A stretch of DNA of 64,000 nucleotides from NCBI GenBank assembly GCA_051294905.1, contig CM119373.1, positions 5,334,001-5,398,000 on the forward strand, given 5' to 3'. Below the pieces are notes generated by a model that searched no databases, was not told the origin of the DNA, and saw only the letters and a program-made list of their open reading frames with translations. Source of the stretch: Botryllus schlosseri. Taxonomy: Eukaryota. Below are positions 18,666-53,674 of the stretch, in pieces; the first letter of the stretch is position 1; every line of letters begins with the position of its first letter. The position numbers were made by a program, and so were the translations under genes.

Positions 18666-18776
18666 GATATTCAAGAGTCGATAAGAGCCTCAAGAATGCT
18701 ATCTTGGATCCGCATGTCACAATGCTTTGCGACTTTAATTGTTATGGCAGACTTTGCCATATATTAGCATTAATTC
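18666..18776 (+). CDS. Putative receptor gene exon A: first half of an Ig-like domain
   Basis: TTTTGTAG acceptor, GTATCT donor, 111 nt, phase 1-1, open: YSRVDKSLKNAILDPHVTMLCDFNCYGRLCHILALI (VTMLC resembles the Ig B strand). Confidence 0.5.
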
Positions 18777-18911
18777 GTATCTGGATCACGCATATGACGT
18801 ACGCAGTTCTTGTTGTTGTTGTTTTTGTTGTTGTTCGTCTTCTTTATTTTTAGTCCTTGGCTGCCAACTCGTAGCACGGCCCCAGAGGCTTCAATAAGAA
18901 ACCGCTTAGAC

Positions 18912-19746
18912 CAGGGACGGGCAACATACGGCCCGCGACGTGATTTTGAGCGACCAGCAGAGAGTTTCTACCCTGAAACTGAAATTCAAATATGAAAGTA
19001 TTGACAAATTTTAGGCGTCATAGAATGAATTCTAGTTTGCCAACCTGAGAAACACCGTCATGAAACTACTACGGGCAAACATTTTCGATCATGAACATTA
19101 TCAAGACACGACTGCGTTCCAATATAACTGATGTTCACGTGCAGTCTTTACTAAGGTTTTCAACATCCGGCATACAGTCAGAGTTCACAGAACTTCATGA
19201 CAACTTTTATCGACCACAAAAGTGACAAAATTCTGATTTAATTCAAAAGCTATTGAAGTACATTAGATGAATATATTCAATAAATAGCAGGATTACCATA
19301 CGTCCTCTTTTAAGAGGATTTGTCCTTTTTTTGACACTTTTGAAAGTGTCCTCGGAGGACGCCAAAATGTCCTCGGTGTTGAGAATTTGTCCTCTATTTT
19401 GAAAATTTTTGTTAAATGTATGTTAAAATTCGTCAACGGTACCGAGGGTCTTTCGGGAGCTGAGTCGAAAAGTTGGCCCTTTCTTGTCAACCAATGTAAA
19501 ATTTTCCGGATTTTACTCCGGTGTTGTAAGTCTGGGAAATTTTAGAAAGTGTCCTCTTTTTCAGATTCCTACAGGTTACTGTTTTAGGTCCCTATGCTTT
19601 GAACGTGAAGTTGACATTAAATACGATTTATTCCTGGCATGAGTGGTTTTAAATACGCAATTAATGTATTAATTCTGTAATCCGGCCCGCCAAGTACTTC
19701 ATTTTCCCATATCAGGCCCGCCGACTGGAGAAGTTGCCCGCCCCTG
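18912..19746 (+). mobile_element. hAT Charlie/Buster deletion derivative with transposase C-terminal relic
   Basis: CAGGGACGGGCAAC/GTTGCCCGCCCCTG, TSD GCTTAGAC/GCTCAGAC. 19079-19170 translates to TFSIMNIIKTRLRSNITDVHVQSLLR. Contains a Blackjack-like MITE (~19288-19580). Confidence 0.85.
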
Positions 19747-20299
19747 GCTCAGACGGAATATGGCGAGGAGGAGCCTAGATAAATCTCGAAGACTTAGGTA
19801 GGATTCCTGGAGTCGCCCTCTGTCGGACTAGGACTAGGGTAGGTGTGAACCTCTGAAAGGTTCAGGTTCTTGTGAACGCGAACCTTTTTGGTAGGTTCTA
19901 TGTGAATGTGAATGCGAACGTCAAGACGTCACGTGACGTCATATTGCTAATTCCAACCCTTCATTTCAGTGTGAAGTGATAGCCTATATTATTTTACACG
20001 GTACCTAGCGACGACTCGGGCCACATAATGCCACAATGCTGAAGTTACCTACTATTGACGTTTTAAACGTCGCGAAATGTATCAACTGGTGCAATCAAAT
20101 GATATAATAATCCCGTGAAATCAATATCTTCCGTCGCTTTGCCAACAATTTCGACGAGGAATTTCAAGGGAATATAAGCTTACTTACGCATTGACGGTCT
20201 AGGCCAGACCGGACAATGTATTCGGCGTCTGAATATGGCTACGTTGATATTGAACCCAGTGTAAAACGAGTGTCTGTACTTGCTACCGATATTACCCCA

Positions 20300-50139: not shown

Positions 50140-51685
50140 ACATCACAAATGTGATCTGCCTGCTGGCTGATTTTGATATATCTGTGGTCTGTACATCAGT
50201 TTGAAACAAGTTAAGTACATAATATAGATAGAAGTGCGCTTTTTTAAACTTATTAACTTAACTTTGGCATGAAGATTGGAGACAAAGATAAATACTGGGC
50301 ATTTCATGTCATCTGCGAAACATGCGGATGAAATATGGATGGATGGCTAAGGGCGGATCGGCATTCAATGTCATTTGCTATTAAAGAATCTGAAGAGGAA
50401 TTCGAAACCTTATAGATGACTGTTATTTCTGTATGGGTGACGTTCCAAGGTTCGGAATAACTAAAAAATGACTTGACATTGCATATCCTTCTATTCCATT
50501 TCGTTTTAAGCACCTGTTCCATATTGCAGTAAGTTTTCACTGCTCAAATTATCGGGCGAAAACGCTCCAGAAGACTCGATAGGGCTTAAAGATACAGAAA
50601 ATCACTCCAATGACTTCAACATCTCCCATGTAGATATAAATCTAAAACCACACATTCCTAACCAACACGAACTTGATGATTTAGTTGGGACTCACTAAAT
50701 CAAATGCGGAAATTCTAGGCATTTCGAGATATATTTGAAAATTTTATTGGAAATAAACGAAACAATGAATATAAACCTCTGTTGAACATTATGATCGAGA
50801 TGTATGAAAAAAATGTAGTGTCGCATGTCCTTAAAAACTCATTACCTGCATTTTCGCCTTGATTTCATTAGTTCAAATATGGGTGATGTAAGCAAGAAAC
50901 ATAGGGACGTGTTTCAGGACGTTATGTATGATTTGGAAAGAAGATACTAAGAGTGGTGGAATTGCATCATGACGGGGGATTATTTGCGGTCCACAATACC
51001 AGCAGATTTCTTAGTCCATTGACCCAAATCATGCAAACAAAACCACTTCGGAAATATTTTGAAGTGTTTCCGGCCTTTTGTAATCAATGCTAGTCAATGT
51101 TTGTGCATATTCCTTCGTTTTGTTGATGTGTTTGTATGTGCAATAAATAATTATGCGTAATATTACAGGGCAATTTTGAGTAAAACGAGAAATCGCAAAA
51201 AGTGACATTTCTCAAAGACTAGCGACACTTCAGAAAGAATTTTTGTATTTTAGTGATTGGTTTGGAATAGCGAAACACAAAACATACAAATTTTTACGCA
51301 ATTAAATTTTGCAAAATTTTGGGACCTGGCATTATTTGTGGTCCGTCGTAAGACAACATTTTCCATTTCACAGACGCAAGTCACGCAAACAAAACCACTT
51401 CTGACGAATTTTAAAGTGTTTTCATTGGTAATTGATGCATGAGTAAGCTAAATATGTTCATATTAACCTTTCCATTAGGGTTTTGCTACCTCCAATAAAG
51501 AATTATGGTGTTCAATACGGAGCAATTATGAGTAAAATCGAAAATTAGGGATATTGACAATTCTTCAAAATTCGGGACACTTCAGAAAAAATGTTGGTAT
51601 TTTCATAATTGGGTTGGAATACTAAAGCACAAAGCATAAAAATTTTCAGCCAACTAAAACTTTTGCAAAATTTTGTTTCATGGTG
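50140..51685 (+). mobile_element. Decayed, internally deleted Chapaev3-like (CMC) transposon
   Basis: Relic motifs YICG, FGMKIGDKDKYWAFHVICETC and DDCYFCM (50170-50435), then CRMSLKTHYLH, NMGDVS, LERRY, M-x2-DY (50820-50990). A ~150-bp subterminal direct repeat (51170-51320 vs 51521-51673). Confidence 0.8.
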
Positions 51686-53504
51686 TAATAGTTCAAGGGG
51701 CACCGCGCTCTAAAAATGATGTTGTCTCAAATTGAAGCGAAGATCGAAAACAAATATTCCCCGCAGCCATTTTCTTCAGAAAGCCACCGTAATCGAGCTG
51801 CAATCAACTGAATTTTTGTATAAGACCAACTGACGCGGTTGCGCGTCATCGATTCTTAACGCGTTGCGAACTTTCCGGCGCGATATCTTCACTGTAGCAC
51901 TTGATCGACGCGACCTCCATATTGTATCACAATTTCTTTATGTAGTATATGGTAAACATATGCTGCGGCACTCAATTTGTTTCCAAATGATGCAGCAGCA
52001 CGAACTCTCAATGCCACTTGCAACATATGCATATTACATAATCACTATGCTGTCGAGACTCTGTTGGACACTACGGGTACCCAGCTGTGCCAATGCCGTC
52101 TGATCGAATAAGGAATTAATAATAATGCATAATTTGTATATTAGTCAATGCACTATTTACAAAAATAATATAGCGAAGGCGGTGTCGATTGTGCCTCATC
52201 ATTATTGATGTAAAATGAAAGGCTTTTTGCAGTGCATATGGTAAAGTACTGCGACAATATCCGTTGGCCAAGAACGTATTCAGTGGCTGTGACTTCATGC
52301 GGATAATATCCAGTAAAGGCAAGCTTTTTCTAATATTAATAGTGATTTTGAATGTGTCCTTGAGAATGTTCTTCGTTCAATCTTGGCTAGTGTCAGTACT
52401 AAGACACTAGCATAGCTCAGTCGATGTAGCGTACAACCGAGCCTCGACCAGTATGGTGATTGTACAAATAAATACGTATGATGTTGCATGGGGCATTGAG
52501 AGTCCGTGCTGTTGTATCATATGAATTGTGGAAGCAAAGTGAGTGACACATCATATGTTTTCCACGTCCTACATAAAGAAGTGAAGCTACAATATCGAGA
52601 TCGCGTCGAGTAAGTGCGACGGTGAAGATATCGTGCCAGAAAATTTCGCAACGGATTAAGATACGCGGTAGCTGGAGCGTAATGGGTTCTTATGCAAAAT
52701 TCACTTAATTGAAGCTCCATTAACGTGACTTTCTGAAGAAAATGGCTGCGGAAATTTTTTTCGATCCGCGCTTCAATTTGAGACCACGTCATTATTTAGA
52801 GCTTATTCGGGTGAACCTGTTGGTATGACGACATCGTTATGCGGTGTTATTTCGTGACCTCCTGTCTGCTATGTCAAAACATATTGAAATCGCCCAAACG
52901 TCCTATAACCTAAAAGACGCATACGATCTCAAATTGGTATTTCTTCACTGAAATTAATTTTACCCTGCAGGATGACATTTGTTTTGTGGCGTTCAGATGG
53001 ACAGGACAGGTACATTTGGCACCAGCGATTTAGGTGCATATGGACAATTAAACATATATTGAAGTTTCCGGTCGACATGAGGGCAGTCCTTTTCGAGCAT
53101 GGTTTTCTCGCTGGCACACTTTTCGGAGTCGCATGTAATATGGCCGCTATGGCCGCTAATACTTGGTACGTCGTGGCGCGGTTTTGTCCACGTCGAAATG
53201 TCCATTTCGATAAATCATGGGTATTTTTCTTTGAGGGAAGGGTGCCCAAAAACTAAGATATCTGGAAACATGAAATCACGATTTTTTTGAAAAAGTGGCA
53301 TAATTTCCAAAAAACTCCATGAGTTATGTTATTTCATGAAATAATTTTGGGCCCCCTTCGACCTCCTACCCCAAATTAACTACGGCATTTGGTACAAAGT
53401 TGCATAATTATATCTGGTTGCTCTCTGATCTATGAATTTAAAAGTATCATAGATATATTTCACGAATATCGAAATTAAATCAATATTGAAAGCGTATTTT
53501 TCAG

Positions 53505-53674
53505 TTTCAGTTTCATCCATCTCTCCTTACTCTACTGGTCATACGAGCATTGACGATGAGGCGATGTCACATGATGTTATACTGCTCACTTCTCTATCAG
53601 CAGTGGCAGTACTTCTACTGATCATACTCACTGGATGCTTAGTTTGGGAACGCCGCATCAAACGTAGCAATTAG
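53505..53674 (+). CDS. Receptor gene transmembrane exon
   Basis: TATTTTTCAG acceptor, phase 1: SVSSISPYSTGHTSIDDEAMSHD-VILLTSLSAVAVLLLIILTGCLVW-ERRIKRSN*. A 24-aa hydrophobic helix is followed by a basic stop-transfer stretch. Confidence 0.75.

Follow-up and report, generated by a model that had tools for sequence, protein, structure and literature searches.

The current model of histocompatibility in Botryllus involves two receptor families, FF and FcoR, encoded in three clusters, and the outcome is thought to be the sum of signals from immunoreceptor tyrosine-based inhibition motifs (ITIMs) and hemi-immunoreceptor tyrosine-based activation motifs (hemITAMs). FcoR proteins have a signal peptide, a V-type immunoglobulin (Ig) domain, a Sushi domain, two Ig domains, one transmembrane (TM) segment, and a tail whose tyrosine motifs are of the ITIM, hemITAM, or core type (Rodriguez-Valbuena et al., PNAS 2025, PMC12582321). 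The FF proteins, FF1 (fester) and FF3 (uncle fester) among them, have an Ig domain, a Sushi domain, and three TM segments (PMC12582321). The main text and Dataset S01 of that paper, on which our statements about it rest, place the FF and FcoR clusters of Botryllus schlosseri on chromosome 5, on chromosome 9, and in the fuhc region of chromosome 11; head-to-head pairing with FF genes is found in the chromosome 5 and 11 clusters only, and the chromosome 9 FcoR cluster has no FF partners (PMC12582321). Every full-length FcoR reported there carries a tyrosine motif in its tail, and the FcoR Ig domains were detected only via structure prediction (PMC12582321).

Here we describe a receptor-like gene in a 64,000-nucleotide stretch of Botryllus schlosseri DNA (contig 3:5334001-5398000 of a 495-Mb assembly with 219 contigs), which is referred to below as the window. 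The gene, at window positions 24843-53674 on the plus strand, is intact and transcribed. We think it probable that it encodes an FcoR-like, tail-less surface receptor and that its family is a separate sequence clade outside the published FF/FcoR clusters. In this same explanation, the product is a type I membrane protein, predicted to be heavily glycosylated, in which a V-type Ig domain and a CCP-like (complement control protein-like) module are followed by two smaller Ig domains, a stalk, a single TM segment, and a basic tail of 8 residues, and the gene is an old singleton on contig 3 in a family of at least 16 loci.

A gene of at least eight exons

At least eight coding exons make up the gene, all with AG/GT borders and compatible phases and with pyrimidine tracts before them; the joined eight-exon product is 434 residues long and open throughout. 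Exon BC (24843..25181) by itself encodes the whole N-terminal V-type Ig-like domain, 113 amino acids with three invariant cysteines. Exon D (25677..25871) encodes the CCP/Sushi-like module, in which C1, C27, C48, W54, and C62 are invariant. Ig domain 2 is divided between exon E (26098..26258; AG and GT borders), which holds the first half with the B-strand Cys and ends in phase 0, and exon F (38458..38593), which holds the second half with the motif NGxxLSCY and ends in phase 1. The junction between them is in phase 0 across a 12.2-kb intron, so that the end of exon E and the start of exon F are whole codons. Ig domain 3 is encoded by three exons: exon G (38657..38767) covers its first part (GPYPP...C...FYSNP), exon i (44592..44683; AG/GTGAGT borders, fitting phases) its middle (CCGMxYG..GQMI), and exon ii (44741..44843; AG/GTAAGA borders) its end with the F-strand Cys. 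The phase-1 end of exon ii fits exon H (53505..53674), which encodes a Ser/Thr-rich stalk, the TM helix, and the 8-residue basic tail followed by a TAG stop. The introns of 12 and 9 kb are filled with repeats. The exon F donor reads T|GT(G/A)AGT in the window copy and in 13 of the 13 paralogue copies read.

An eight-exon gene had been proposed for this locus from the sequence letters alone (the original prediction). Each of its eight start positions follows an AG and opens a stop-free frame, and six of the eight were borne out as real coding sequence; of the other two, one is spurious and one had to be merged, and two exons had been overlooked. The stretch that spans the proposed exon at 18666 (18518-18850, plus strand) belongs to a dispersed repeat family: its translation matches 122 other places scattered over contigs 1-16, mostly with stops. 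The exons proposed at 24843 and 25086 together form a single exon, 24843-25181: the supposed intron is open in frame, paralogues align through it in frame with conserved residues, and cDNA contigs of two runs span 24842-25179 unbroken. With exons i and ii added, the domain that had been called a partial Ig becomes a whole third Ig domain, and the ends of exons D, F, and G are refined to 25871, 38593, and 38767.

Collinear paralogues in the same genome

As a test of each exon, we looked in this genome for paralogous copies arranged in a matching order. At 52-73% identity, exon D had 15 paralogous matches, of which 14 were stop-free. Genome-wide, there were 13 matches for exon B (the part of exon BC that begins at 24843), 14 each for exons F and G, and 4 for exon H, all on contig 10. 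Exon E gave 3 weak genome-wide matches (E 0.06-1.5) and clearer ones in local searches (E 7e-8 to 2e-4). Eleven paralogous single exons aligned with exon BC over its full length at 30-45% identity.

The paralogues form clusters on contig 10 (10.52-10.90 Mb), contig 11 (7.5-8.2 Mb), contig 4 (9.9-10.3 Mb), and contig 1 (31.85-31.89 Mb), and one further exon B match lies on contig 2. Exon order and strand are constant within each cluster. For example, one contig-10 paralogue on the minus strand has B at 10628159, D at 10627170, E at 10626319, F at 10616705, G at 10616533, and H at 10611926. Exon i was revealed by tblastx conservation with the contig-10 and contig-1 paralogues, where it lies between their G and H exons; exon ii occupies the same position in the contig-10 paralogues, after a short intron. 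Collinear paralogues thus exist for the six retained exons, for exon i, and, on contig 10, for exon ii. The original prediction had proposed to count paralogues in the source genome; the family has at least 16 loci there. In one paralogue on contig 11 (L039, 8015378-8015665), a single open frame of 232 amino acids contains both the F and the G exon, the short intron between them being open in frame.

A transcript-derived relative

A profile searched against 1.84 billion representative proteins retrieved P0007, a 599-amino-acid open reading frame (ORF) on a 3-kb assembled transcript from a public run. The same search gave one 98-amino-acid paralogue-like fragment and five low-scoring partial matches, of which the one read (P0002) is a repeat protein. 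Between the end of exon BC and exon ii, the joined gene model and P0007 aligned over 297 residues (31% identity, pairwise E 3e-39), and none of the 12 gap positions fell at a junction. Seven exons are spanned by this alignment. It passes over the D|E junction and over F|G, where both have a Phe junction codon, and it runs straight across E|F with its 12.2-kb intron, as expected from the original prediction that a phase-0 join across this intron unites two halves of one Ig-like domain, which was correct. Exon i corresponds to about residues 345-380 of P0007, and exon ii aligns up to the Cys of its sequence SCD.

This genome does not encode P0007 (best match 34%), which is therefore an independent relative, probably from another species. 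A homologous-protein search with P0007 found itself only. P0007 has the same domain order as the window gene product over the part covered (the end of Ig1, CCP, Ig2, and Ig3), with Phe at the Ig2|Ig3 junction, but unlike it carries a signal peptide and ends in a tail of ~130 residues with several tyrosine motifs. An alignment of P0007 with 47 exon fragments stacked all of the fragments on one region and was discarded.

Domains of the encoded protein

The N-terminal domain (Ig1) was modeled from exon BC with AF2 and 11 aligned paralogues. The model is a nine-strand beta sandwich (pLDDT 86.2, pTM 0.77). The top Foldseek ranks were T-cell receptor (TCR) and antibody V domains, Nav beta1, RAGE-V, shark NAR, NITR, and TREM-1 (E from 7e-3, TM-score up to 0.56), and NKp44 was also among the best structural matches besides the TCR and antibody V domains and TREM-1. 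A VIA search, which is independent of Foldseek, gave Z scores of 8.8-7.0 with a root mean square deviation (rmsd) of ~3 Å over ~100 of the 113 residues; V-set domains were prominent among the best, and the best match had Z 8.8 and rmsd 2.7 over 101 amino acids. In both searches, V domains made up the majority of the top-ranked matches. The predicted structure confirmed that Ig1 has a V-set immunoglobulin fold.

Exon D carries the pattern C-x25-C-x20-C-x5-W-x7-C, which is invariant in a 7-sequence alignment, and it is the sole C..C..C..W..C pattern among the 1312 window ORFs of at least 30 amino acids. Of the 30 named look-alike clusters in the ESM Atlas, 23 were Sushi clusters (0.93-0.94). The exon D profile matched none of the PDB sequences at E ≤ 10, and a search for longer proteins homologous to exon D found none. 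From its cysteine and tryptophan pattern and these look-alikes, exon D is likely CCP-like. The two following domains, E+F and G+i+ii, each contain a B-strand and an F-strand Cys. There are 12 N-glycosylation sequons in the whole product.

Membrane end and cytoplasmic tail

The window gene product has a single hydrophobic segment, with a hydropathy peak of 2.8 at model residues 403-421. This TM segment is uncharged, and the tail of 8 residues that follows it is basic and without Tyr; it contains no ITIM, hemITAM, or YxxI/L/V motif. A contig-1 paralogue (L014:1223-1668, contig 1:31875222-31875667) has an apparent TM exon and then a tail exon of ~75 amino acids with the motifs YDNV, YEQV, and VYEVYSV. 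Because of this tail and the long Tyr-rich tail of P0007, the wider family appears to include signaling-type members, and it seems to mix such long-tailed members with tail-less ones.

Comparison with FcoR and FF receptors

The predicted domain organization of the window gene product resembles that of FcoR, with a V-type Ig domain, a CCP-like module, two putative Ig domains, and a single TM segment. Both families are multigene, clustered, and highly divergent, and Pfam-level searches found nothing in the window gene's family, much as the FcoR Ig domains came to light only through structure prediction. The exon layout of Ig1 in the window gene is one of the two layouts published for FcoR (PMC12582321).

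Intron positions and phases were compared with those of a canonical FcoR gene on contig 5, and five of the five junctions compared matched. In both genes, the Ig1|Sushi junction is in phase 1, one residue before Cys1; the Sushi module ends in phase 1; the split inside Ig2 is in phase 0, exactly 19 residues ahead of the F-strand Cys; the Ig2|Ig3 junction is in phase 1 with a Phe junction codon; and Ig3a ends in phase 1 on G. The canonical FcoR exons used here and in the sequence comparisons were copies from this genome. The profile of exon F scored 21.8 against eight canonical FcoR exons (P 1.5e-4), and none of 30 column shuffles scored as high; for F+G against canonical FcoR exons, none of 50 shuffles reached the real score. 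Searches with tblastn against these exons gave weak similarity. We infer common descent of the window gene's family with FcoR.

Other observations argue against simple FcoR membership. A 10-residue FcoR Ig2 motif, with up to 2 mismatches allowed, occurred at 10 places in this assembly, with 0 control matches: one on contig 5 (16.7 Mb), seven on contig 9 (9.7-10.6 Mb), one on contig 11 (26.98 Mb), and one on contig 14. Nine of these 10 sites are on contigs 5, 9, and 11, which agrees with the published Botryllus schlosseri chromosomes 5, 9, and 11 (PMC12582321) and fits a B. schlosseri-type genome that follows the published chromosome numbers. The window gene, at contig 3:5.33-5.40 Mb, is on none of the three chromosomes that the main text and Dataset S01 give for FF and FcoR. 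Sixteen signature motifs of its family were looked for in Dataset S01 (PMC12582321); 14 were absent, and DATW and ENNF occurred in unrelated contexts only. The tail lacks the tyrosine motif. The window gene product is also shorter, at ~460 amino acids with a leader, than the 520-610 amino acids of the FcoR proteins in the same source, and the gene is a singleton on contig 3 with paralogues on contigs 1, 4, 10, and 11 (7.5-8.2 Mb).

The FF proteins share with the window gene product an N-terminal Ig-like domain followed by a Sushi or CCP-like module, the lack of a tyrosine signaling motif, and restriction to botryllids. They differ in having three TM segments and no Ig2 or Ig3 (PMC12582321), whereas the window gene product has one TM segment and two extra Ig domains. 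The fester-family assignment offered in the original prediction, as a member or analogue, is thus upheld in part: FcoR architecture and intron layout match, but the locus is off the clusters given in the main text and Dataset S01, the signature motifs are absent, and there is no tyrosine motif. The gene is best filed as a tail-less FcoR-like variant of a family that is undescribed in the main text and Dataset S01 of PMC12582321 and in PMC12065747; the SI Appendix of the former could list further loci. Taken overall, the observation on which the original prediction was based is partly confirmed, and its interpretation is partly supported.

A 9-residue FF C-terminal motif had a single match in the genome, on contig 11 at 26.50 Mb, and 0 control matches. 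About 11 kb from it is a Sushi ORF that differs from the FF1 published in Dataset S01 (PMC12582321) at 2 of 61 residues by eye. The C-terminal motif and the Sushi exon mark an FF1-like gene on the minus strand at contig 11:26499687-26511218 (loci L015-L017). No FcoR motifs were seen in 70 kb of sequence flanking it. The Sushi module of a contig-9 FcoR (L024, ~10026700-10027200) seems to be split in two exons, and that of the contig-5 gene (L028, ~16702700-16703050) is a single exon; such a split would be an exon-layout variation beyond the 1-or-3-exon rule given for Ig1 in the published main text and Dataset S01.

Expression and selection

Transcription of the gene was observed in cDNA contigs of runs X5, X6, and X9, whose kind is unrecorded. 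An X9 contig (830 nt, record 18) joins 24842-25179 to 25675-25871 with no mismatch, which corresponds to the BC|D splice (ambiguous by two letters). An X6 contig (990 nt, record 9) carries exon BC without mismatch, with 18 letters before it and 634 after, and an X5 contig (record 1) is an unspliced read-through of the BC donor. Three runs contain 0.48 of the sampled words of 24843-26270, and the exon share of that stretch is 0.49. In the exon E bin, contig depth was consistent with ~161 nt of exon. In the raw RNA run X22, no usable reads were found on the exons; 99 in 100 of its aligned reads matched only in part, mostly at repeats.

The ratio of nonsynonymous to synonymous substitution rates (dN/dS) between the window gene and its paralogues was 0.09-0.57 over all five exons tested, and dS exceeded 0.6 against every paralogue and was mostly above 1. 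With dS mostly above 1 and dN/dS below 1, the gene is therefore an old copy that has long been kept in frame. Among young pairs of paralogues, dN/dS was 0.65-0.71 for Ig1 versus 0.25-0.30 for CCP, F, and G; for exon E it was 1.23, over 56 codons only. Over exon BC, no contig from the three studies differed from the window; this speaks against a highly polymorphic determinant, though the individuals may be related. The suggestion in the original prediction of a rapidly diversifying family found no support in dN/dS, which was below 1 in every window-gene comparison, or in these contigs.

Proposed function and alternative explanations

If the gene encodes a tail-less FcoR-like receptor, the distal V-type domain, which is the most variable between paralogues, would bind a ligand at the cell surface. 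The protein would be unable to signal alone, because it lacks tyrosine motifs and its TM segment is uncharged. It may be the binding, non-signaling partner in a receptor pair, or it may compete with long-tailed relatives as a decoy; the first option would parallel the FF proteins, which are proposed to act in this way with FcoR. The binding of a ligand, an association with partners, and any allorecognition role are inferred properties of this protein. Vertebrate KIR and Ly49 are likewise clustered families that mix long-tailed signaling members with short-tailed members of similar ectodomains, and in short-tailed KIRs a charged TM residue recruits an adaptor. The window gene product differs from these in its uncharged TM segment, and it has no known sequence relationship to them.

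A wider interpretation is that the family is a third, unrecognized arm of the allorecognition repertoire: a dispersed FcoR-like family of at least 16 loci at five chromosomal sites outside the fuhc, chromosome 5, and chromosome 9 clusters, with long-tailed and tail-less members, the latter tuning self/non-self responses as decoys or partners. We regard this extension as tentative and, for now, unlikely. If it is true, an additional family with the same ectodomain plan on other chromosomes would lengthen the list of genes to genotype and knock down, and its non-signaling members might give the histocompatibility model a decoy or co-binding layer. The repaired exon model and the paralogue coordinates are ready probes for expression in ampullae, copy number among haplotypes, and pairing with FF and FcoR.

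Several results weigh against an FcoR-like receptor. Phase-1 introns at domain borders are common across Ig-superfamily genes. Only ~20 residues around the F-strand Cys of Ig2 beat the shuffles in the comparison with FcoR exons, and these resemble a generic Ig F-strand signature. In hhalign comparisons, the CCP exon profile gave P 0.15 against one canonical FcoR Sushi exon, with at least 5 of 50 shuffles scoring higher, and for exon G alone against canonical FcoR exons 24 of 50 shuffles scored as high or higher. The 64-kb window contains no second CCP-like ORF and no copy of the FF Sushi motif CG[YF]xC that would mark an FF-like partner. The domain searches proposed with the original prediction were divided: structure prediction of Ig1 followed by Foldseek led to V-set domains, but Pfam gave no Ig or Sushi match in the eight exon translations, in exons BC, i, and ii, or in P0007. 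Likewise, there was no Pfam Sushi match (PF00084) at E ≤ 10 for the D exons of seven family members or for P0007, and exon D modeled alone by AF2 with a 7-sequence alignment was unusable (pLDDT 52.7). The assignment of putative Ig2 and Ig3 domains comes from the P0007 alignment and the spacing of cysteines.

Two further points of this kind concern the gene model. Of the junctions that the original prediction had proposed to map with RNA, the BC|D splice is the only one seen directly; the later ones, E|F included, were not among the joints listed, which were dominated by repeat joints. A signal-peptide exon was not found in the 24.8 kb upstream by scans of 12001-24842 and 1-24842 for an ATG, a hydrophobic stretch, and a phase-1 donor, in agreement with the original prediction, and tblastx of paralogue upstream regions against the window gave repeat matches only, with no leader exon. 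A 5′ exon nevertheless exists upstream of exon BC, because spliced contigs carry 18 and 37 letters there.

The weak sequence links to FcoR are what would be expected if the gene encoded an Ig-superfamily adhesion protein or a complement-control-like surface protein with no link to allorecognition, its resemblance to FcoR being convergent or very ancient. The lack of any sign of high polymorphism in exon BC across three studies, the dN/dS values below 1, and the window's lack of a neighboring FF-type gene are in line with such a protein, and so is the P0007 ectodomain, for which the nearest named clusters in the ESM Atlas are Ig-plus-Sushi proteins such as hikaru genki (0.82, a lead only). However, the family is multi-copy and clustered, and it is lineage-restricted, the 1.84 billion representatives having yielded only P0007, one paralogue-like fragment, and five low-scoring partial matches. 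Its domain order and its intradomain intron positions are as in FcoR, and Ig1 changes faster than CCP, F, and G in young pairs. We consider an unrelated adhesion or complement-control-like protein rather improbable.

The gene could also be an ordinary signaling FcoR that is merely uncatalogued, with the short tail being one splice form and other forms reaching ITIM, hemITAM, or core-motif exons. FcoR tail motifs are exchanged through alternative splicing and intron retention, and the authors themselves consider that the diversity of the FcoR family is probably underestimated (PMC12582321). Long, tyrosine-rich tails are present in P0007 and, apparently, in a contig-1 paralogue, and 10 kb of the window remain beyond exon H. 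In these 10 kb (53.7-64 kb), however, tblastn with P0007 or with the tail of the contig-1 paralogue found no tail exon (E < 0.1), and a tblastx comparison with the region downstream of the contig-10 paralogues gave no match in the window. The stop 8-10 residues past the TM segment is common to the window gene and two contig-10 paralogues, and one of these two short-tailed paralogues has no GT at the candidate donor. Together with a locus on none of the FF/FcoR chromosomes of the published main text and Dataset S01, these results make an uncatalogued signaling FcoR decidedly improbable.

It is very improbable that the gene is a decaying copy, a stranded singleton without function that is still transcribed after losing its leader exon and tail, as the missing signal-peptide exon, the very short tail, the repeat-filled 12- and 9-kb introns, and the X5 contig unspliced at the BC donor might suggest, for its eight exons are open with intact splice sites, its frame has been long maintained (dS above 0.6 against every paralogue with dN/dS of 0.09-0.57), its spliced contigs extend into a 5′ exon, and its short tail is common to intact contig-10 paralogues.

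Other features of the window

Retroelement remnants occupy 7823-11738 on the plus strand, upstream of the gene, with an RNase H match at 9301-9774 (E 7e-6); the long ORFs neighboring this match belong to no clear family. At 21147-21211 on the minus strand, a U6 small nuclear RNA match (56.2 bits, E 1.8e-11) covers 65 bases against a 105-position model and is likely a truncated U6-derived copy. A segment of ~83 nt at 33872-33954 is extremely abundant in raw RNA run X22, with a depth of ~550 per strand class, and thousands of X22 reads have ends that run into unlike sequence. It matches neither an Rfam family nor a tRNA and is probably a segment common to a highly expressed transcript or repeat elsewhere.

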